Below are positions 9,972-51,160 of a DNA stretch of 64,000 bases, piece by piece (the stretch's first letter is position 1; each line of letters begins with the position of its first letter). The stretch lies in contig JBQTIU010000022.1 in the NCBI GenBank assembly GCA_052387815.1, positions 104,913-168,912 on the forward strand, in the 5' to 3' direction. The stretch comes from Pseudomonadota bacterium (GTDB taxonomy: Bacteria; Pseudomonadota; Alphaproteobacteria; CACIAM-22H2). The notes under the pieces are model-generated. The model searched no databases. It was given only the letters and a program-made list of their open reading frames with translations, and was not told the origin of the DNA. The position numbers were made by a program, and so were the translations under genes.

Positions 9972-11882
9972 TCAGACTTTCGGTTCCCCGAGTGTGCGCG
10001 GCACGAAACGATGGAGGACCGAGCCGGCGCCCGACAGGCCGACCGCGGCGGCCAGGATCGGCGCCGAGGAGCCGAAGAAGCACAATCCCCCGGCCCCGAA
10101 CAGCAGCCGCGCCGGCCACGACACCGCCCGGTCCAGATGGCCCTCGACGGCGATGGCCAACAGCACGACGCCGATGATCGCGAGAACAGTGGACCCGACG
10201 ATGCCGACAAAATCTCCCGTCAGGAGAATCGATTCATGATAGGCGAACGCAAACGGGACCACGAAAGCGACGATGGAAATGCGACAAGCGAGGACGGAAA
10301 GCGTCAGCGGATTGCTTTTCGCGATCGCCGCCACGGCATAGGCGGCGATGGCGACCGGCGGCGTCACCGCCGACAGCACCGCATAATACAGGATGAACAT
10401 GTGCGCGGCCATCAGCGACACGCCGAGCTTCACCAGCACCGGGCCGATGAGCACGGCGGCGAGAATGTAGGAGCTCGAGGTCGGCAATCCGAGACCGAAG
10501 ACGATGGTCAGCACTGCGGTGACGAGCAACGACACGAACACGCTGTTGCCCGTTATGAGCGTGATCACGTCGGCGAATTTGGCCACCAAGCCCGTCATCG
10601 TCAGCCCGCCGACGATCAAGCCGGCCGCCGCGCAGGCCCCGGCCACCGGCGCCATCCGCAACGTGGTTTCGCTCAAGGCGTCGAAGAGCGCGACGAGCCC
10701 TATCCGGGTTCGCGGCCTGATCGCCGCGACGGCGACGACGGCGACGGTGGCGACCACCGCCGTCAGGTTGACCGACAGGCCCGCCGCGATCGCCAGCACC
10801 AGCACGAGGATCGGGATCACGAACACCCAGCCCTGGGCAATGGTCGCGCGCGCGCTCGGAATTTCGGATGGGTCCAAGCCCTTGAGGCCGAGCCGGAGCG
10901 CGCTCAAGTGCACCTGCGCATAAATGCCGAGGTAGTAGAGGAAGGCGGGGATGGTCGCCGCGATCATGATCTCCACATAGGGGATGCCGGTGTACTCGGC
11001 CATGATGAACGCCGCCGCCCCCATGACCGGCGGCGCGAGCGAGCCGCCGGCGGAGGCCGCGACCTCGATCGCGCCGGCGAGTGTGGGCGGATATCCCAGG
11101 CGTATCATGACCGGGATGGTGACCGATCCGGTGGTGAGCGCGTCCGAGACCGGATTGCCGGAGATCGTTCCGTAAAGGCCAGAGGAGATGACCGCGATCT
11201 TGGCCGGGCCGCCCACCGATTTCCCGGTGAGTCGCGCCGCCAGGTTGAAAAAGAACTCTCCCCCGCCGGCTTTGACCAGCATCGTCCCGAACAGCACGAA
11301 CAAGAAAGCATAGGTGGCGGCAACGCGCAGCGGCGCGCCGAAGATGCCGTCGGTCGTGAAGACGATGATGTCGAGGAAGTGGTCGTAGGGGATGAAGCCG
11401 TGACCGAGCGGGCCCGAAAGACGATGGCCGAACAGGTCGTAGGCGAAAAAGAACAGGACGAGCAGGGTGAGCCCCAGCCCCGTCGTTCGCCGCGACACTT
11501 CGAGGACCAACAAGAGCAGAGCGGTTCCGAACAGGATATCGAAGGCTGTCAGCTCGTCGAACAGCGTCATCCGGGTGATGATCGTCCTGCTGTTGGCGAC
11601 GAAGTAGAGACCGGTGACGGCGGCGGCCAGCGCCAATCCCCAGTCGAGCGGCGGGATGCGCACCGGATCGGCGTCCGCTGTCGCGCCGATGATGAGGAAC
11701 ACGAGCACCAGCATCGCCGCCAAGAAAACGATGGTGAGCTGGAAGAGATCGACGATCGCGTAGACCGTCCCGTAGATGACGCCGACGGCGATGAGAGCCG
11801 CCAGCACCTTGGCTCCCCCCCCGACCCAGCCGCCTGGAGCTCGGATGCTGCCGGTGCCGAACAGCAGATCAACCGCCGTCAT
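9972..11882 (-). CDS. TRAP transporter fused permease (DctQ-DctM fusion, TAXI-associated type)
   Basis: 636 aa, highly hydrophobic polytopic protein typical of the 4TM/12TM fusion. Confidence 0.85.
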   Translation of the reverse strand: MTAVDLLFGTGSIRAPGGWVGGGAKVLAALIAVGVIYGTVYAIVDLFQLTIVFLAAMLVLVFLIIGATADADPVRIPPLDWGLALAAAVTGLYFVANSRTIITRMTLFDELTAFDILFGTALLLLVLEVSRRTTGLGLTLLVLFFFAYDLFGHRLSGPLGHGFIPYDHFLDIIVFTTDGIFGAPLRVAATYAFLFVLFGTMLVKAGGGEFFFNLAARLTGKSVGGPAKIAVISSGLYGTISGNPVSDALTTGSVTIPVMIRLGYPPTLAGAIEVAASAGGSLAPPVMGAAAFIMAEYTGIPYVEIMIAATIPAFLYYLGIYAQVHLSALRLGLKGLDPSEIPSARATIAQGWVFVIPILVLVLAIAAGLSVNLTAVVATVAVVAVAAIRPRTRIGLVALFDALSETTLRMAPVAGACAAAGLIVGGLTMTGLVAKFADVITLITGNSVFVSLLVTAVLTIVFGLGLPTSSSYILAAVLIGPVLVKLGVSLMAAHMFILYYAVLSAVTPPVAIAAYAVAAIAKSNPLTLSVLACRISIVAFVVPFAFAYHESILLTGDFVGIVGSTVLAIIGVVLLAIAVEGHLDRAVSWPARLLFGAGGLCFFGSSAPILAAAVGLSGAGSVLHRFVPRTLGEPKV

Positions 11883-42899: not shown

Positions 42900-43005
42900 G
42901 CGTTTGGCCGGCGCTTTCCCGGCGGCCGCTCGCTGGCCCGAGCGGCCTTGACCCGAGGTGCGGAACCGGTCACTGATTGGCTCCCACCCTCGCGGAGGAA
43001 CGCCG

Positions 43006-43974
43006 ATGTCCTTCGTCCTTGCCTTCCTCTTGACCCTCGTTCTCGTGGCCCCGTTGCCGGTCGTGGCGCAGGAGAGCTTTCCCGCCCGCCCGATCGCCGT
43101 CGTGGTGCCGTTCCCGCCCGGCGGCGTCGCCGACCAGACCGCCCGCCCGATCGCCGCGGCGATGGAAAAAGTTTTGAAGCAGCCGCTCGTCCTGCGCAAC
43201 GTGGCGGGTGCCGGCGGCGCAGTCGGGATGGCCAATGTCGCCAACGCGCGGCCCGACGGCTATACGATCTTGATGGCCCTTTCGAGCATCTCGATCATCC
43301 CCGAGGCGGACAAGCTGTTCGGCCGCCAGCCGGCCTACACCATGGACCAGTTGACGCCCATCGCGCTGATCAGCGCCGACCCGACGATCCTCGTGGTGCG
43401 CGCCGAGCACCCGTGGAAGACGGTCAAGGAGTTCGTCGACGACGCCAAGCAGCGGCCGGGGGCGATCTCGTTCTCGTCTTCGGGCATCTACGGAACTCTG
43501 CACATGGCGACGGCGATGTTCGCGCACGCCGCCGGCATCAATCTGCGCCACGTGCCCTTCAATGGCGCCGGCCCGGCCTTGACCGCCATCCTGGGGGCCA
43601 ACGTCGACGCGCTTGCCTCGGGCCCCGGGGTGGTCCTGCCGCACATCAAGGCGGGAACCCTGCGGCCGCTCGCCGGCTGGGGCGCCGAGCGGGTCGCGGT
43701 GTTGCCCGACCTGCCGACCTTCAAGGAGCTCGGCTACGACGCGCTGTTCTACATCTGGGCCGGGCTGTTCGCGCCCAGCCGCACTCCGGCGCCCATTCTC
43801 GATGTGCTGCGGGACGCCGTCCGGCAAGGGGTGCAGGACCCGGAGTTCAAGGCCACCATGGCCAATCTCGGAACCCCGATCCGCTATCTCGATGCGCCGG
43901 AGTTCCAGAAATTCTGGGACGACGACGCCAAGCGGCTGGCCGAGGCGGTGCGGCGGGTCGGCAAGGTCGAGTAG
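43006..43974 (+). CDS. tctC: tripartite tricarboxylate transporter substrate-binding protein (TctC/Bug family)
   Basis: Signal peptide followed by Bug-family composition; followed by tctB and tctA. Confidence 0.85.
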   Translation: MSFVLAFLLTLVLVAPLPVVAQESFPARPIAVVVPFPPGGVADQTARPIAAAMEKVLKQPLVLRNVAGAGGAVGMANVANARPDGYTILMALSSISIIPEADKLFGRQPAYTMDQLTPIALISADPTILVVRAEHPWKTVKEFVDDAKQRPGAISFSSSGIYGTLHMATAMFAHAAGINLRHVPFNGAGPALTAILGANVDALASGPGVVLPHIKAGTLRPLAGWGAERVAVLPDLPTFKELGYDALFYIWAGLFAPSRTPAPILDVLRDAVRQGVQDPEFKATMANLGTPIRYLDAPEFQKFWDDDAKRLAEAVRRVGKVE

Positions 43975-44001
43975 AACCCGGCCGCGGTCGCCGGGTCCGT
44001 C

Positions 44002-44481
44002 ATGGCCGAGGGGTCGGCGCCCGGCCGCGGCCCGGCCGCCTTGACTAGGGACCGGATCGCCGGCTCGGTCCTGCTGCTCTTGGCCTTGGGCATCGCTTGG
44101 CAGACCCGAGATCTGCCGCTCGGTTCGCTCACCGAACCGGGCCCGGCCTATATGCCGCTCCTGGTCGCGATCCTGTTGGGCGCGCTCGGTGTCGCGGTGG
44201 CGCTCACGGGCGGCCGGTCGCCGTCGCTCGGATCGATGCGGTGGCCCGAATCCGGGCACGCGGCGATGATCCTGCTGGCCTGCGCCTTCGCGGCCGTGGC
44301 GCTCGAGCGGCTCGGCTACCGCTTGACGACGATCGCGCTGCTGGTCTTCCTGGTCGGCGTGGTCGAGCGCAAGCCGCCGGCGATCGTCGCGGCCCTCGCC
44401 CTCGGGCTTTCGATGGGCTCGTTCTTCCTGTTCTCCGACCTCTTGCGGGTGCCGCTGCCGCGCGGCCCGTGGAACTTCTAG
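44002..44481 (+). CDS. tctB: tripartite tricarboxylate transporter small membrane subunit TctB
   Basis: 159 aa, four TM helices; positioned between tctC and tctA. Confidence 0.7.
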   Translation: MAEGSAPGRGPAALTRDRIAGSVLLLLALGIAWQTRDLPLGSLTEPGPAYMPLLVAILLGALGVAVALTGGRSPSLGSMRWPESGHAAMILLACAFAAVALERLGYRLTTIALLVFLVGVVERKPPAIVAALALGLSMGSFFLFSDLLRVPLPRGPWNF

Positions 44482-44482
44482 G

Positions 44483-45997
44483 GTGTTGGACACCTTCCAG
44501 AACCTCTATCTGGGCTTCGCGGTCGCGTTCACGCCGGCGGTCCTGTTCTACGCCGTCCTCGGCTGCGTCGTGGGAACGCTGGTCGGGATGCTGCCCGGCC
44601 TGGGCCCGCTGGCCGGCATCAGCCTGCTGTTGCCGATCACCTTCGGCCTCAACCCCACCGCCGCGATCGTGCTGCTCGCCGGCATCTATTACGGCGCCAT
44701 GTACGGCGGATCGACGACCTCGATCCTGATGCGCATCCCGGGCGAGGCGGCCTCGGTCATCACCTGCATCGACGGCTACGCCATGACCCAGAACGGCCGC
44801 GCCGGACCGGCGCTCGCCATCGCGGCGATCGGGTCCTTCGTCGCCGGAACGCTGAGCGTGGTGGCCCTCATGCTGCTCGCCCCGCCGCTCGCCGCCTTCG
44901 CGCTGCGGTTCGGTCCGCCCGAATACGTGGCCCTGCTCCTGCTCGCGCTGCTGGTGCTTTCCTATATGAGCAGCGGCCCCATGCCCAAGACTCTGGCGAT
45001 GGCGGCGCTCGGCCTGTTCCTGGGCACCATCGGCATCGACGCCATGTCGGGGTTCATGCGCTTCAGCTATGGCCTGTACGAGCTCGGCGACGGCATCGGT
45101 ATCGTCCCCGTCGCCGTGGGGCTGTTCGGCATCTCCGAGATCCTGCTCGTCGCCGGGCAGCCGACGCCGCCGCGCATCCGCAAGCCCAGGTTCAAGGAGC
45201 TATACCCATCCCGGGAGGAGATGGCCCTCTCGGTCGGGCCGGTTGCCCGGGGAACCTTGCTCGGCTTCCTCATCGGCATCGTCCCGGGCTCGGCCCACAT
45301 CATTTCGTCCTTCGTGTCCTATGGCGTCGAGCGGCGCCTGTCGGCGCACCCCGAGCGCTTCGGGCAGGGCGCGGTCGAAGGCGTCGCCGGGCCGGAATCG
45401 GCGAACAACGCCGCCGCCTCGGGCGCCTTCGTCCCGATGCTGGCCTTGGGGCTGCCGTCGGGGCCGATCCCGGCGGTGATGATGGCCGCGCTCATGGTCC
45501 ACGGCGTCTCGCCCGGGCCGCTGCTGATCGAACAGCAGCCGGCGCTGTTCTGGGGGTTCATCGCCAGTATGTACGTGGGCAACGTGGTCCTCCTGGTCCT
45601 CAACCTGCCGATGGTGGGACTGTTCGTGAACCTGCTGCGCATCCCCTACCCTTATCTTTACCCGGCCATCCTCCTGTTCTGCGTGCTGGGCGTCTATGCG
45701 GTCAACCAGAGCACGCTCGACGTGTGGATCATGGCGGCGATGGGTGCGCTCGGCTATGGGTTGCGCAAGTTCGACTTCGACGTGGCGCCGGTCGTCCTCG
45801 GGCTCATCCTGTCGCCGATGCTGGAGATGAGCCTGCGCCAGTCGCTCGCCATGTCGGCGGGGAGCTACGGGATCTTCCTCGACCGGCCGATCGCCGCCGC
45901 CATGCTCGGGCTCGGCCTCGTGCTTCTCATCGTCAGCCTGCGGCCGCTGGGAGGCGCGGGTTGGCGCCGGCGGATCGGGCTGGACGACCGGGCTTAA
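44483..45997 (+). CDS. tctA: tripartite tricarboxylate transporter large permease TctA
   Basis: 504 aa polytopic membrane protein with TctA family composition. Confidence 0.9.
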   Translation: MLDTFQNLYLGFAVAFTPAVLFYAVLGCVVGTLVGMLPGLGPLAGISLLLPITFGLNPTAAIVLLAGIYYGAMYGGSTTSILMRIPGEAASVITCIDGYAMTQNGRAGPALAIAAIGSFVAGTLSVVALMLLAPPLAAFALRFGPPEYVALLLLALLVLSYMSSGPMPKTLAMAALGLFLGTIGIDAMSGFMRFSYGLYELGDGIGIVPVAVGLFGISEILLVAGQPTPPRIRKPRFKELYPSREEMALSVGPVARGTLLGFLIGIVPGSAHIISSFVSYGVERRLSAHPERFGQGAVEGVAGPESANNAAASGAFVPMLALGLPSGPIPAVMMAALMVHGVSPGPLLIEQQPALFWGFIASMYVGNVVLLVLNLPMVGLFVNLLRIPYPYLYPAILLFCVLGVYAVNQSTLDVWIMAAMGALGYGLRKFDFDVAPVVLGLILSPMLEMSLRQSLAMSAGSYGIFLDRPIAAAMLGLGLVLLIVSLRPLGGAGWRRRIGLDDRA

Positions 45998-46024: not shown

Positions 46025-47257
46025 TCAGGCGCGGGGCCGCCTGAGGAACGAGGTTCCGCGCTCGAGCGGCGGGAGGCCGAGGTGGAGGGCGAGGCTCTGG
46101 CCGATATCGGCGAAGGTCTTGCGCTGGCCGATGGGCCTGGGCGCCACCTCGGGGCCGAAGGCCAGCACCGGCACGTGCTCGCGGGTGTGGTCGGTGCCGC
46201 GCCAGGTGGGATCGCAGCCGTGATCGGCGCTGATCACCGCCACGTCGCCGGGACGCAAGGCGCGCTCGAATTCCGGCAGGCGCGCGTCGAACTCCTCGAG
46301 CGCCGCGGCATAGCCGGCGGGGTCGCGGCGGTGGCCGAACAAGGTGTCGAAATCGACGAAGTTGGCGAACACCAGCGTGCGCTCTTGGGCCTCGCGCGCC
46401 GCCTCGAGCGTGACGTCGAACAACGCCATGTTGCCCTCGGCCTTGACGGTGCGGGCGATGCCGCGATGGGCGAAGATGTCGGCGACCTTGCCGACCGCGA
46501 CCACCGTCCCGCCGCTCGCCGTAAGCCGGTCGAGCAGGGTGGGCGCCGGCGGCGGGGTCGCGAGGTCGCGGCGGTTGCCGGTGCGCCGGAAGCCGCCCGG
46601 GGAGCCCACGAAGGGCCGTGCGATCACCCGGCCGATGCGGTAGGCGTCGACCAGATCGCGGGCGATCTCGCACACCTCGTAGAGCCGCGTCAGGCCGAAG
46701 GTCTGTTCATGGGCCGCGATCTGGAACACGCTGTCGGCCGAGGTGTAGACGATCGGCTTGCCGGTGCGCAGGTGCTCGGCCCCCAGCTCGGCGACGATCT
46801 CGGTGCCCGAGGCGTGGCGGTTGCCGATGAGGCCGGGCAGCCGCGCCCGGGCGATCAGCGCGCCCGTTAGCTCCTCGGGGAAACTCGGGTAGGCCGGCGG
46901 GAAATAGCCCCAGTCGAACTCGACCGGCACGCCGGCCATTTCCCAGTGGCCGCTCGGCGTGTCCTTGCCGCGGCTCACTTCCGCCGCATAGCCATGAGCG
47001 CCGGCGAACGGCCCGGCGGACTCGAGGCCCGGCGGCATGCGCCCGGAACTCAAGCGCGCGGCCTCGCCGAGGCCGAGGCGCACGAGGTTGGGGAGCTTGA
47101 GCCGACCGCGGCGACGAGGGGTGTCGGCGCCGCCGGCCGCGCAGGCGAGCGCGATGTGGCCGAGCGTATCGGCGCCCGCATCGCCGAACGAGGCGGCATC
47201 GAGGGCGGAGCCGATGCCGAACGAATCCATGACCAGGAGGAAGGCGCGTCGAGCCAT
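46025..47257 (-). CDS. deoB: phosphopentomutase
   Basis: 410 aa; metal-binding [12 protein letters not shown]-terminus and a C-terminal ADHGCDPT motif. Confidence 0.9.
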
Positions 47258-47337
47258 GCGTGCCTCGCCACCGAGACCGCGAGTTTACCCGATTCCACCG
47301 CCGGCGGGGACGTTCTCGGGTCTCCTTCTCGGGGAAA

Positions 47338-47703
47338 CTATGATCTGCCGTCCCGCCAGCGGTCCAGGATGCCCCATGCGTCGAGACCGACGCCTGTGCC
47401 TTCGTACTCTCGACAGATCGCTTCGAGGACGGACACGGCGCGATCGGGAGCGAACAGTAGGGCGTCCGCCGCGGCCTGAGTGCGCACGCCCAGGTTCTCG
47501 TGTTCGAGGAGCAGCAGCAGTGCCGCGTGCGCGTCCCTGCCGCGTGCATGAAGTTCGCGCCCAATGCCGATGATGATGTCCATCTTGCGGTTCTCCGCCG
47601 GCGTGTCGAGAACGACGACCGCTTCGAAATGCTCGAGGGCCGTCTTCTCGTACCGAGCGACGAGTTCCGCGACCGCCAGTTTGGCATAGTTCGGTCTGGC
47701 CAT
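47338..47703 (-). CDS. HEAT-repeat-like small protein, copy 2 (putative immunity protein; DUF2019-like)
   Basis: 121 aa; about 95% nucleotide identity to the upstream copy; HEAT-like ALLLLLEHENLGVRTQAAADAL repeat. Confidence 0.6.
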   Translation of the reverse strand: MARPNYAKLAVAELVARYEKTALEHFEAVVVLDTPAENRKMDIIIGIGRELHARGRDAHAALLLLLEHENLGVRTQAAADALLFAPDRAVSVLEAICREYEGTGVGLDAWGILDRWRDGRS

Positions 47704-47731
47704 CGGCTGGTCGTTCCTCGCGCCTCCCCTT

Positions 47732-48106
47732 TCACGGAAGTTGTGATTCACCGTTCCGCCAACGGTCCAGGATGCCCCCTGCGTCCGCTCCGATGCCTGT
47801 CCCTTTGAAATCGCGTCGGATCGCTTCGAGGACGGACACGGCGCGATCGGGAGCGAACAGAAGGGCGTCCGCCGCGGCCTGAGTGCGCACGCCCGGGTTC
47901 TCGTGTTCGAGGAGCGGCAGCAACGCCGCGTGCGCGTCCCTGCCGCGTGCATGAAGTTCGCGCCCAATGCCGATGATGATGTCCATCTTGCGGTTCGCGG
48001 TCGGCGTGTCGAGGACGACGACCGCTTCGAAATGCTCGAGGGCCGTCTTCTCGTACCGAGCGACCAGCTCGGCGACGGACAGTTTCGCGTAGTTGACTTT
48101 GCTCAT
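47732..48106 (-). CDS. HEAT-repeat-like small protein, copy 1 (putative immunity protein; DUF2019-like)
   Basis: 124 aa; start codon overlaps the stop of the upstream 245-aa gene (ATGA), indicating translational coupling. Confidence 0.6.
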   Translation of the reverse strand: MSKVNYAKLSVAELVARYEKTALEHFEAVVVLDTPTANRKMDIIIGIGRELHARGRDAHAALLPLLEHENPGVRTQAAADALLFAPDRAVSVLEAIRRDFKGTGIGADAGGILDRWRNGESQLP

Positions 48107-48840
48107 TTTAGAACTCCATGGTCTCGCAAGATATTCAACCCTCTTCTGTACTGCCGACCGAAGTCCAGCTCCTCGATCGATTCGCGGACCGAAAGGCCGT
48201 TCAGGTCACGGGGCCTCCTGTTGTAATACCCGGTTATCCCCCAGTGTTTCCAGAACGGGATGCAGACGATGTTCTCGGTGGTGTGGATGCGGCCCGGGAA
48301 CCTCGCCAAATTCCCGTCGGTCTGCCCGACGATATGATGGCAGTCCTGCCAAACCCGGATCTTGTTCTCGAAATACTTCTCGAAAGCCTTGGGGCTGTCA
48401 AACTCCATGTACTCGGGCGACATGCGAAGCTCATCGAGGGTCCGCGGGTACTCCAGCTCGTCCATCAGCGCGCGCACGACTTCTGCCGTGATGACCACCG
48501 CACCTCTCAGCCGGCGACCCAACTCGCTGGTGACTTTCTCAACGTTGATGGCAACCAGCTGGAGCCAGCGCTCGCGCTCCGTCGTCGGCGTTCCGTTGGC
48601 GCCGTTCCCGTGGTTGCTGCTGTCGGCATTGCCATCGCCGCCGCCGGCCTCCCGCCACTGTCCGCCCGTGGACGTGCCGGCAGGATGACGCGGCTGGTTG
48701 GGATCGAACCCGGCTTTGAGGCCGAGTTGCACCTCGAGCGCGATGAGCCGGCGGTCCACATCCTCATAGAAGCGCCGCACCCCCGCACGGATTCGATCCA
48801 GGAGCTCGCGGAGCTTGTCGGGTGGGAGATGCTGCAGCAA
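48103..48840 (-). CDS. putative toxin with a C-terminal HNH/AHH-like nuclease motif
   Basis: 245 aa; C-terminus reads QDCHHIVGQTDGNLARFPGRIHTTENIVCIPFWKHW, an HH-x(n)-N-x(n)-H His-Me finger pattern; lower GC than flanking genes; AGGAA Shine-Dalgarno. Confidence 0.5.
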   Translation of the reverse strand: MLQHLPPDKLRELLDRIRAGVRRFYEDVDRRLIALEVQLGLKAGFDPNQPRHPAGTSTGGQWREAGGGDGNADSSNHGNGANGTPTTERERWLQLVAINVEKVTSELGRRLRGAVVITAEVVRALMDELEYPRTLDELRMSPEYMEFDSPKAFEKYFENKIRVWQDCHHIVGQTDGNLARFPGRIHTTENIVCIPFWKHWGITGYYNRRPRDLNGLSVRESIEELDFGRQYRRGLNILRDHGVLK

Positions 48841-49021
48841 GGGAATTCCTGGAGTCCGTATGCCCGTTTCGTACTTATTATCAACAATACGGACTTATTG
48901 TCAAGAACAAACTGGTCTTTCCGGTTCGGCGCCATCAACCTCTTGATATGGCTGTTAGATTTATCCACCGGCGGGCCCGATCACGCGGCCGCGCGAACCA
49001 CGCCGGCGACCGCGCGCCGCG

Positions 49022-50353
49022 TTACGGCCCGGCGCCGAGCCGCCGCAGGATCACGGGCGTGAGTGCCGGTCGGTGATCGCCGACCACGACCGCGGCGCGG
49101 ATCGCGGCCGCGGCGCGCTCGGCGTCGGCGCCGTTGCGGGCGTGGACCACGCACAGCGGCGCCGCGCCGACCTCTTCGCCGGGGCCGCGCACGTCCGCGA
49201 GCCCGACCGCGGGATCGATGTCGTCCTCGGCCCGCCGGCGCCCGCCGCCGAGCGCCACAACCACGAGCCCGAGCGCGCGGGCGTCCATGCGCTGGAGGAT
49301 GCCGGCGCGATCCGAGGCGACCGGCAGCCGCACCGGCGCCGCCTCGAGATAGCGGCCAGCGTGCTCGACGAGATCGGCGGGGCCGCCAAGCGCGGCCACC
49401 ATCCGTGCGAAGCGCTCGGCGGCGTCGCCCGAGGCGAGCGCGCGCTCGACCGCGTGATGCGCGGCGTCGCGATCCGGGGCCACGCGCCCCAGCACCAAAA
49501 GCTCGGTCGCCAGCGCGCGCGTCACCTCGTCGAGCCGGGCCTCGCGCGCAGCGCCCGTCAAGTAGGCGACCGCCTCCTTGACCTCGAGCGCATTGCCAGC
49601 ACTGCGGCCCAGCACCTGGTTCATGTCGGTGAGCAACGCCACGGTGGGTAGCCCGGCGCCGGTCGCCACCTCGACGATGTTCTCGGCCAGCAAAGTTGCG
49701 TCGCCGACCGCCGGTAGGAAGGCGCCCGAGCCGAACTTCACGTCCATCACCAAACCCTTGAGGCCTGCCGCGAGCTTTTTCGACAGGATCGAGGCGGTGA
49801 TCAGCGGCACCGACTCGACGCTCGCGGTCAGGTCGCGGACGGCATAGAGGCGGCGGTCGGCCGGCGCGAGGTTCGGCGTCTGGCCGACGATGGCGCAGCC
49901 GACCTCGCGGACCGCGCGCTGGAAGCGATCGAGGCCGGGCCTGGTGTCGTAGCCAGGGATGCTGGCGAGCTTGTCGAGGGTGCCGCCGGTGTGGCCGAGC
50001 CCGCGACCCGAGATCATCGGCACCGCCCCGCCCGCCGCCGCGACGATCGGGGCGAGCATGAGGCTGACCTTATCCCCCACCCCGCCGGTCGAGTGCTTGT
50101 CGAGCGGGGGCCCCGGCAGGTCCTCTCGCGACCAGTCGAGAACGACGCCCGAGCGGGTCATGGCGCGGGTCAGCGCGACTCCTTCCTCGCGCGTCATGCC
50201 GCGCAAGAAGACCGCCATGGCGAAGGCGGCGATCTGCGCCTTGTTGAGCGACCCGTCCGTGATCCCGCCAACCACGAACTCGATCTCGGCCTCGCTCAAG
50301 CTCGCGCCGTCGCGCTTGCGGCGGATGATCTCCTGGGGCAGGAACGAAGCCAT
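49022..50353 (-). CDS. deoA: thymidine phosphorylase
   Basis: 443 aa; HSTGGVGDK phosphate-binding motif. Confidence 0.9.
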   Translation of the reverse strand: MASFLPQEIIRRKRDGASLSEAEIEFVVGGITDGSLNKAQIAAFAMAVFLRGMTREEGVALTRAMTRSGVVLDWSREDLPGPPLDKHSTGGVGDKVSLMLAPIVAAAGGAVPMISGRGLGHTGGTLDKLASIPGYDTRPGLDRFQRAVREVGCAIVGQTPNLAPADRRLYAVRDLTASVESVPLITASILSKKLAAGLKGLVMDVKFGSGAFLPAVGDATLLAENIVEVATGAGLPTVALLTDMNQVLGRSAGNALEVKEAVAYLTGAAREARLDEVTRALATELLVLGRVAPDRDAAHHAVERALASGDAAERFARMVAALGGPADLVEHAGRYLEAAPVRLPVASDRAGILQRMDARALGLVVVALGGGRRRAEDDIDPAVGLADVRGPGEEVGAAPLCVVHARNGADAERAAAAIRAAVVVGDHRPALTPVILRRLGAGP

Positions 50354-50377: not shown

Positions 50378-51160
50378 TCAGTATCGGGAGCGCTCGCCGG
50401 CGCCCGTCCCGTGGCCGAGCCGGCGCAGGAGGTCGTCGAGGAGCCCGCTGGCGCCGATGCGCAACGTGCGCGAGCTCGCCCAGGCGGGCCCCAGGATCGC
50501 ATCCGCGAGTTCGAGATAGGCCCGCGCCTGCTCGAGGGTCTTGACGCCGCCCGCGGCCTTGAAGCCGACCGTCCGGCGCGACCGACGGGCCTCGCGGATC
50601 GCCTCGAGCATGGTGCGCGCCGCCGCCGGCGTGGCGCCCACCGCAACCTTGCCGGTCGAGGTCTTGAGGAAGTCGGCGCCGGCCGATATCGCCTCGCGGC
50701 TCGCCGCGGCGATGAGCTCGGGGCTCTTCAGCACCCCGGTCTCGAGGATGACCTTGAGGGTGGTCCGGGGTCCGGCCGCCGCGCGGACCGCCGCCACCCC
50801 CGCGCGCGCCTGCGCCCGCCGCCCGGCCATGAAGCGGCGATAGGGGAACACCATGTCGATCTCCTCGGCGCCTTCGGCAAGCGCCGCCTTCGCTTCCCTG
50901 GCGGCGGCGGCGGGGCTGGCGTTGCCGGCCGGGAAATCGACCACGGCGGCGACCCGGACCCCGGTGCCTTCGAGCGCCCGGCGGGCCACGCAGGCAAGCC
51001 GCGGGTAGACGCACACCGCGGCCACCTTGCCCGCCGGCGTGAGCGCGCGCTTGCACAGCGCCGCGATCGCCGCCTCGTCGTCGCTGTCGTTGAGGCTCGT
51101 TAGATCGAGCAGCGAGAGCGCCCGACGGGCGTCTCGAGTCTCCTTGCGCTCACTCGGCAT
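50378..51160 (-). CDS. deoC: deoxyribose-phosphate aldolase
   Basis: 260 aa; catalytic Lys in the conserved DFLKTSTGK segment. Confidence 0.85.
   Translation of the reverse strand: MPSERKETRDARRALSLLDLTSLNDSDDEAAIAALCKRALTPAGKVAAVCVYPRLACVARRALEGTGVRVAAVVDFPAGNASPAAAAREAKAALAEGAEEIDMVFPYRRFMAGRRAQARAGVAAVRAAAGPRTTLKVILETGVLKSPELIAAASREAISAGADFLKTSTGKVAVGATPAAARTMLEAIREARRSRRTVGFKAAGGVKTLEQARAYLELADAILGPAWASSRTLRIGASGLLDDLLRRLGHGTGAGERSRY

Follow-up and report, generated by a model that had tools for sequence, protein, structure and literature searches.

A probable orphan toxin-immunity cassette between deoA and deoB, from a candidate polymorphic-toxin family linked to phage-head genes

Why is the deo nucleoside operon of an alphaproteobacterium interrupted, between deoA and deoB, by three small genes of low guanine-plus-cytosine (GC) content, and to what kind of system do these genes belong? 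The locus lies in a 64,000-nt stretch of DNA, analysed as a whole and here called the window (Pseudomonadota bacterium, assembly GCA_052387815.1, contig JBQTIU010000022.1, positions 104,913 to 168,912 of the forward strand). On its minus strand the gene order is cdd, PNP (purine-nucleoside phosphorylase), deoC, deoA, an open reading frame (ORF) of 245 amino acids (aa), ORFs of 124 and 121 aa, and deoB. We regard the islet formed by the three ORFs as probably an orphan toxin-immunity cassette, derived from a polymorphic-toxin family whose members are normally found in the head-morphogenesis clusters of HK97-like prophages and gene transfer agent (GTA)-like elements of Alphaproteobacteria. The features of the locus are as follows.

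47258-49021, minus strand: whole islet, deoA stop to deoB start, 1764 bp (ORF map, GC content, relatives)
48103-48840, minus strand: 245-aa candidate toxin gene, TTG start, AGGAA 7 nt upstream (ORF map)
47732-48106, minus strand: DUF2019 gene 1, 124 aa, predicted cognate immunity protein (PF09450, 46.5 bits)
47338-47703, minus strand: DUF2019 gene 2, 121 aa, tandem paralogue (PF09450, 42.8 bits)
49022-50353, minus strand: deoA (thymidine phosphorylase), upstream flank (ORF map)
46025-47257, minus strand: deoB (phosphopentomutase), downstream flank, intact, PF01676 (ORF map)
50378-51160, minus strand: deoC (ORF map)

The islet was compared with the closest relatives that had usable contigs, giving five loci from four deoB proteins of 74-77% protein identity. 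There the operon consists of an ABC transporter, cdd, PNP, in some cases deoC, and then deoA and deoB, with the position orthologous to deoA encoding Glycos_trans_3N, Glycos_transf_3 and PYNP_C domains. In all five loci deoA and deoB overlap by 4 bp or are 2 bp apart, with nothing intervening. The GC content of the insert, 0.630, was the minimum among all 1764-nt windows of the 64 kb (mean 0.680, standard deviation 0.021), and GC at third codon positions was 0.77-0.79 in the insert versus 0.89-0.92 in the deo genes. Because the junction is closed in relatives and the composition is anomalous, the islet is a true insertion, lineage-specific and compositionally foreign. An earlier reading of the same DNA (the original prediction) had described a lower-GC segment separating deoA from deoB on the same strand and proposed that it was an inserted islet; the segment is where it was said to be, and both the junction comparison and the GC scan bear the proposal out. 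The deoB ATG has GAGG 5 nt ahead of it. As to how the insert arrived, neither repeats nor spacer comparisons left a trace of the mechanism: no target-site duplication was evident, inspection by eye found nothing convincing as a remnant of a duplicated deoA 3' end or deoB 5' end, and both spacers of the insert were without match in any fetched locus. An imperfect 28-nt direct repeat near both insert ends (47291-47318 and 48958-48985, 71% identity) was no better than many others in GC-rich DNA and is probably due to chance.

The 245-aa protein is identical to the NCBI hypothetical protein ACT4P2_05335 (Pseudomonadota bacterium metagenome-assembled genome, MAG). It contains the C-terminal peptide to which the original prediction had drawn attention, including H168, H169, N190 and H199, and is of the stand-alone type, with an N-terminal helix, a junction motif, a linker and a C-terminal HNH/AHH-like domain. 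Confidence in the structural model is given as the predicted local distance difference test (pLDDT).

48727-48822, minus strand: N-terminal long helix, aa 7-38 (AlphaFold2, pLDDT about 80)
48655-48717, minus strand: junction (pre-toxin) motif KAGFDPNQPRHPAGTSTGGQW, aa 42-62 (invariant alignment block)
48106-48423, minus strand: C-terminal toxin domain, aa 140-245 (invariant residues and model)
48337-48339, minus strand: H168 of the C-terminal domain
48334-48336, minus strand: H169 of the C-terminal domain
48271-48273, minus strand: N190 of the C-terminal domain
48244-48246, minus strand: H199 of the C-terminal domain

A word-indexed search of 5.8 billion proteins returned the protein itself and three relatives at 27-34% identity. 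An exhaustive profile search revealed a large family, with at least 3720 clusters defined at 50% identity (3720 cluster representatives at E≤1e-3, 1012 at 1e-10 and 293 at 1e-30). None of 48 sampled members had a Pfam assignment, and PHROGs likewise gave the 48 sampled members no assignment, returning one irrelevant match only. Nearly all hosts are Alphaproteobacteria, chiefly Hyphomicrobiales. Two parts of the protein are conserved across the family, namely an N-proximal motif, KAGFDPNQPRxPxGxxxGGQW, and a C-terminal domain of ~105 residues, GYDxHHIVEQ...ENLVRIPxLKHWEI...GGLSPREYLRGKxWxERxxVGLxAL..GVLKP, in which H168, H169, N190, H199, R219 and G234 (window numbering) are invariant. The window toxin retains all six.

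The partner genes offer the clearest view of what the cassette may be. Both small proteins, which the original prediction had called HEAT-like and had suggested comparing with DUF2019, pass the PF09450 model above its gathering cut-off of 23.3 bits, gene 1 spanning model positions 2-102 of 105 and gene 2 positions 2-88. The stop codon of the toxin gene overlaps the start of DUF2019 gene 1 as ATGA (48103-48106), the arrangement from which translational coupling had been proposed. The two small ORFs are tandem duplicates spaced at a period of 403 nt, 89% identical as DNA and 86% as protein, with a ratio of nonsynonymous to synonymous substitution rates of 0.37. Differences between the paralogues are concentrated in the first ~10 and last ~25 codons, and the central ~80 codons are nearly identical, synonymous sites included; this pattern suggests either partial gene conversion or diversification confined to the ends. 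The small proteins match PDB entry 2i9c over their full length (E 4.3e-10). This entry (RPA1889), the only solved DUF2019 structure, was deposited as a hypothetical protein but is typical of the immunity family: at E 2.9e-23 it matched the DUF2019 gene downstream of a toxin homologue in a Rhodopseudomonas MAG, where that homologue stands after portal and S78 protease genes. The loci of the 2i9c comparison are L097:7511-7942 and L113:7530-7901.

The association between toxin domain and DUF2019 is close to universal in the loci that were collected. A DUF2019 gene lies directly downstream of the homologue in 40 of 41 metagenomic and IMG/VR loci, mostly with a 4-bp overlap, and in the single exception the homologue sits at the contig edge. 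In 85 alphaproteobacterial genome loci, found with a degenerate DNA pattern, DUF2019 follows directly after 85 of 96 toxin-domain ORFs, and two more are at the locus edge. Additional DUF2019 genes are common at these loci, as are toxin-domain copies truncated at the 5' end (L015, L025, L038, L041). The layout of toxin, immunity and immunity seen in the window recurs on an IncP plasmid of Azospira sp. I09 (NZ_AP021845.1; L133:3947-5142), where a truncated toxin domain of 129 aa directly follows an ISL3 transposase and precedes two DUF2019-like genes annotated as hypothetical. A Rhodoblastus MAG (L062:3736-5848) carries an orphan toxin of 225 aa, a DUF2019 gene, a toxin-domain fragment and a second DUF2019 gene, with no portal or protease nearby and flanking ORFs that look housekeeping-like by eye. 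Further afield, plasmid pFDU301A of Priestia megaterium (NZ_CP045273.1; L132:2621-4638) has an unannotated 558-aa ORF that ends in the toxin domain (E 4e-20, family hidden Markov model, HMM), begins with a signal-peptide-like N-terminus and contains a long asparagine-rich coiled-coil; a DUF2019-like ORF of 108 aa comes directly after it. By this domain composition, a predicted secreted protein of a Firmicute also uses the cassette.

The N-proximal motif is not restricted to the HNH-like domain. It was found in ORFs with unrelated C-termini, three of which carry PF18431 (CdiA-CT RNase A), and in stand-alone relatives with other C-termini it is preceded by helices equivalent to aa 7-38. Motif-bearing ORFs with other C-termini (L028, L039) are followed by different small ORFs according to C-terminal type, none of them DUF2019. 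The most elaborate case is an IMG/VR contig (L028:2048-10500) encoding a 656-aa Phage_portal protein, in which the 3' end of the portal gene together with the motif is repeated 5-6 times downstream. The repeats measure 276-300 nt, are 65-94% identical, and each heads a different C-terminus (two of them CdiA-CT RNase A, one HNH-like) with a different small ORF downstream; by its layout, this locus is a portal-based orphan-cassette array, an architecture known from CdiA and Rhs. Against otherwise distant homologues the motif-coding stretch is the part of the islet most conserved as DNA (76-84% nucleotide identity), and for this reason the motif fits a role as a recombination handle. The shared motif with alternative C-termini, the co-varying downstream gene and the orphan-cassette arrays are the reasons for which the family is assigned, from its gene organisation, as a polymorphic toxin-immunity system in the sense of Zhang et al. 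2012. The original prediction of a toxin-immunity pair is thus strongly supported by comparison, through both the DUF2019 linkage and the change of downstream gene with C-terminal domain.

Many relatives are embedded among genes for phage heads. At six viral loci a Phage_portal domain precedes the motif: L016 (570 aa) and L020 (699 aa) are portal proteins that end in the HNH-like toxin domain under study, and four further ones (L021, L027, L028, L031) continue from the motif into other C-termini. Neighbours in the viral loci include Peptidase_S78, Phage_portal, Phage_capsid and terminase. Among genome loci, 39 of 81 have portal and/or S78 protease genes inside the 8-kb chunk, usually in the order portal, protease, toxin, DUF2019; at other loci there is Phage_capsid, or a GTA_TIM (RcGTA g15-like) gene with the toxin immediately behind it, and still others have ordinary cellular neighbours such as TetR, ABC and response-regulator genes. 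At L073 and L087 the toxin-DUF2019 pair comes directly after a gene of ~1300 aa, and the locus set containing these two includes, as a set, matches to GTA_TIM, Phage-tail_3 and Rcc01698_C. This arrangement suggests that the pair was inserted at the end of RcGTA-like clusters at L073 and L087. A position just downstream of the portal gene, or of portal and S78 genes, is frequent in relatives and does not apply to the window; linkage to a delivery apparatus, through portal fusions and head-module neighbourhoods, is likewise a property of relatives and not of the window copy. Orphan-cassette arrays too occur only in relatives, the window having a duplicated immunity gene instead. Pfam matched no MuF domain (PF04233, PF06152) in the window protein or in 48 relatives.

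These comparisons alter one element of the original prediction, which had stated that there was no integrase, no secretion or delivery domain and no signal peptide. An integrase is indeed absent from the insert and a signal peptide from the toxin. The statement is not supported for a delivery domain: the N-terminal helix with NQPRxPxGxxxGGQW is a module common to phage-portal-fused toxins and is found in phage or GTA-like head-gene clusters.

The C-terminal domain was further examined for nuclease features. In an AlphaFold2 model built from a 141-sequence alignment, pLDDT was 93-97 across residues 165-245 (an earlier AlphaFold model from 4 sequences had pLDDT 50.6 and was not used). The core of the model is a strand at 165-169, a strand at 191-195 and a helix at 196-207, that is, a beta-beta-alpha arrangement. 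As read from the sequences, the spacing from the conserved asparagine to the following histidine is 9 residues, equal to that of colicin DNases. Among 40 family members, 5 matched AHH (PF14412) at E 0.004-0.006, the best at 17.1-17.2 bits versus a cut-off of 22.3, with alignments that cover exactly the HH..N..H pattern (profile positions 11-55); 7 of the 40 matched DUF2380 below threshold, the family of the SitA6 toxin, among whose members pMF1.20 has been shown by experiment to be a nuclease (PMC12077181, PMC6091211). A single HNH_2 match, at E 0.059 and below threshold, was the yield of the Pfam HNH models in these 40. Foldseek gave no PDB match below E 4.8, and in BFVD a Bathycoccus virus protein (E 0.086) ranked first, ahead of several HNH proteins (E 1-8), matches that are suggestive but short of significance. 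The His-Me-finger call of the original prediction is weakly supported, by the HH, N and H residues and by the order of the core elements; the HMM support stays below threshold and the fold searches are without significant match. Taking residues and model together, we consider it plausible, and somewhat better than an even chance, that this domain is a His-Me-finger (HNH/AHH-like) nuclease. The toxin-immunity assignment is independent of the nuclease assignment. In the same domain, residues 209-230 of the toxin (48150-48215; consensus GGLSPREYLRGK) include 21 that weakly resemble PF09722, the toxin-binding C-terminal domain of Xre/MbcA/ParS antitoxins, and 10 of 40 members match this model weakly (best E 2.7e-4).

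Several results count against the proposed assignment, in its nuclease part or as a whole. The AHH and DUF2380 scores of relatives all lie below threshold; the window protein itself has no AHH match at E≤1, and its C-terminal domain has none at E≤10. PDB sequences searched with a profile of the C-terminal alignment yielded no match at E≤10, and hhalign against the colicin E9 DNase (sequence identical to 1bxi_B) aligned 9 columns around HH at an insignificant E of 0.044. No Pfam, NCBIfam or PADLOC model matched the 245-aa protein. Among 141 members none diverges further than the window toxin, in which 11 of 28 conserved columns are changed (median 2) and whose score is 68 bits where other members reach at least 122; to judge from these differences it may be functionally drifting, under relaxed constraint, or a distinct sub-branch. 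Neither a portal gene, an S78 prohead protease gene nor a second family member was found in the 64-kb window, and delivery is thus not arguable locally. Finally, the family consensus had no tblastn match in 50,697 INPHARED phage genomes, while 38 IMG/VR contigs carry the family. The phage context consequently rests on prophage-like or GTA-like regions and on the IMG/VR contigs, and the family may be carried by prophages or GTA-like elements not yet obtained as phage isolates.

A putative regulatory element that the original prediction had overlooked lies ahead of the toxin gene.

48877-48904, minus strand: sigma-70-like promoter, TTGACA-16 nt-GATAAT (consensus match; putative function)

The site agrees with the consensus at 11 of 12 positions (0.3 expected in shuffles) and is located in the 45% GC spacer, ~37 nt upstream of the toxin start. 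The Rhodoblastus locus has a promoter-like site, TTGACA-17-TAGGAT, at the same offset from the start codon. No terminator or unusually stable RNA structure was predicted in either spacer of the insert, which makes read-through into deoB plausible. The co-transcription of deoB with the islet that had been proposed is thus plausible, with the cassette promoter as a second source: deoB would be transcribed both by read-through from the deo promoter and from within the insert.

Taken together, these data are consistent with the following scenario. The cassette would have arrived by horizontal transfer, landing exactly at the overlap of the deoA stop and deoB start, and would have carried its own sigma-70-type promoter into the deo operon, so that two promoters, that of the deo operon (through the islet) and that of the cassette, now probably drive deoB. 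Its C-terminal domain of ~105 aa would most likely act as a metal-dependent His-Me-finger nuclease, and the DUF2019 pair (HEAT-like, PDB 2I9C-type) would bind this domain and block the toxin in the producer cell. Elsewhere in the family, variable toxin domains are joined by the motif either to the C-terminus of a phage portal protein or to an N-terminus that is short and helical. This mode of attachment implies that the toxins may be packaged into capsids and delivered with the DNA, as proposed for MuF toxins. The orphan copy could provide immunity against an incoming toxin, supply toxin in trans for particles encoded elsewhere, or act as an addiction module. A broader proposal, which we offer as speculation and hold to be doubtful, is that alphaproteobacterial HK97-like prophages, and possibly RcGTA-like GTAs, wield their capsids as kin-discriminating weapons: variable toxins (HNH-like, RNase-A-like and others), attached by the motif to the portal protein or to a short capsid-targeting helix, would be packaged and injected into recipients, DUF2019 would confer immunity to the HNH-like toxin, and chromosomal orphans would act as stores of trans-loaded ammunition or of immunity, their insertion into housekeeping operons ensuring expression and retention.

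Might the islet be kept for its immunity genes? An unlikely but coherent alternative is that the toxin is decaying or inactive, and that the cassette is retained, if at all, for two DUF2019 genes that protect against toxins delivered by the particles of neighbours. This would agree with the extreme divergence of the window toxin, the duplication of its immunity gene, the extra immunity genes common in relatives and the lack of delivery genes in the window; decay is however difficult to reconcile with an ORF that is intact and full length with every invariant residue in place, with substitutions many of which are conservative (W to Y, L to I, W to F), and with an intact ATGA coupling, ribosome-binding site and promoter. 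The compactness of two genes with overlapping stop and start and their own promoter, together with orphan chromosomal copies outside phage clusters (L062; loci with TetR, ABC and response-regulator neighbours) and the 21-residue resemblance to an antitoxin domain, would also suit a type II toxin-antitoxin, addiction or abortive-infection module that works only inside the cell: its nuclease would never be exported, DUF2019 would be a labile antitoxin, and the pair would stabilise the locus or kill infected cells. We consider such a module improbable: the toxin comes first in gene order, DUF2019 has no DNA-binding domain, and neither PADLOC nor toxin-antitoxin families nor NCBIfam matched the toxin (the only PADLOC match was a weak one to HEAT_CxxC_PD-DEXK, E 0.019, for one DUF2019 copy). 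Moreover, the N-terminal module is common to portal fusions and CdiA-CT-type toxins, and arrays of truncated cassettes are hallmarks of exported polymorphic toxins. The abortive-infection reading, which the original prediction had mentioned, accordingly found no support, PADLOC having returned nothing for the toxin.

Two further alternatives treat the HNH-like domain as something other than a toxin. The insertions are precise with respect to gene boundaries (deoA/deoB here; protease/capsid or after portal in relatives), and with the HNH-like motif this could recall a free-standing homing-endonuclease cassette that inserts between conserved genes and relies on DUF2019 for an accessory function or for self-protection. 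Such an origin is very improbable, given that the protein has no DNA-binding or target-recognition domain, that the same N-terminal motif carries RNase-type toxins and the immunity-like partner co-varies with the C-terminal domain, that the same C-terminal domain occurs on a secreted coiled-coil protein in Priestia, and that no target-site duplication is evident and the 28-nt repeat is at chance level. Relatives that lie in packaging and head modules beside portal and terminase genes might instead suggest an accessory HNH protein of phage DNA packaging, similar to HK97 gp74, left behind by a degraded prophage. We find this barely credible in view of the tight link to an immunity-like gene, the cassette arrays, the alternative toxin C-termini on the same handle and the copies outside phage regions and on plasmids; nor did any Pfam HNH model match at threshold.

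On our preferred reading as an orphan polymorphic toxin-immunity cassette, the closest counterparts are the MuF polymorphic toxins of temperate phages (Jamet et al. 2017, PMC5576092), described earlier as a 'MuF phage-capsid-like system' (Zhang et al. 2012, PMC3482391). As in these, variable C-terminal toxins are borne by prophages on a head-associated protein encoded next to the portal gene, an immunity gene follows immediately downstream, and the proposed route is capsid packaging and delivery with DNA. The present family departs from MuF toxins in its carrier (the portal itself, or else a short helix with NQPRxPxGxxxGGQW), in the lack of a MuF domain in the window protein and 48 relatives searched with Pfam, in its predominantly Hyphomicrobiales hosts and, for the window copy, in a position outside any phage region. 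With Tox-AHH (PF14412; HNH-EndoVII-fold toxin domains) and SitA6/DUF2380 of Myxococcus the family shares xHH...N...H in a predicted beta-beta-alpha core, recurrent sub-threshold HMM matches in relatives, and the use of the domain as a C-terminal toxin part that has an immunity gene of its own; it differs from both in its distinctive helical extension at the C-terminus, GGLSPREYLRGKxWxERxxVGLxAL, and from AHH in its partner, DUF2019 being absent from the immunity partners listed for AHH in the portion of Zhang et al. (PMC3482391) used here.

The junction motif that opens the variable C-terminal domain has parallels in CdiA-CT/CdiI and Rhs-CT systems (compare VENN and PxxxxDPxGL), as have the downstream 5'-truncated cassettes of C-terminus and immunity gene that keep a homology handle (L028, L015, L025, L038, L041), and one alternative C-terminus is the CdiA-CT RNase A domain itself. 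The motif is a different one, however, and the scaffold is a phage portal or head module and not a type V or type VI secretion system; the window, unlike the CdiA and Rhs arrays, has a toxin and two immunity genes and no array. Colicins E9 and E7 with Im9 and Im7 resemble the cassette in the HH...N...H motif, the N-to-H distance of 9 residues and the tightly coupled gene for a small helical immunity protein downstream. They differ in that the immunity folds are unrelated, the Im protein having 4 helices and DUF2019 being HEAT-like, and receptor-binding and translocation domains are lacking in the present family.

Head proteins (MuF, portal, protease) that carry packaged effectors or toxins have already been proposed (PMC3482391, PMC5576092, PMC9503650). 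In the literature on DUF2019, portal-toxin fusions and GTA toxins we found no description of this family, its motif or the DUF2019 pairing. If the proposed assignment is true, a large family without a Pfam, NCBIfam or PHROG model would gain a testable function as a nuclease-type polymorphic toxin, and DUF2019, including 2I9C, a function as cognate immunity protein. The MuF-type route for phage-head toxins would then also cover toxins of the portal-fused and helix-plus-motif kinds in prophage and GTA-like clusters of Hyphomicrobiales, and one would have to ask whether GTA-like particles are able to deliver toxins. The family holds more interest than the window locus itself, which offers a clean case of a selfish cassette inside a metabolic operon, where it separates deoA from deoB, a translationally coupled pair, and probably alters how deoB is expressed.

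Beyond the operon, three plus-strand ORFs of 338, 159 and 504 aa (42958-45997) converge on deoB and by eye look like a tripartite tricarboxylate transporter (TctC/B/A-like). The sole tRNA of the 64 kb is a tRNA-Val at 11841.

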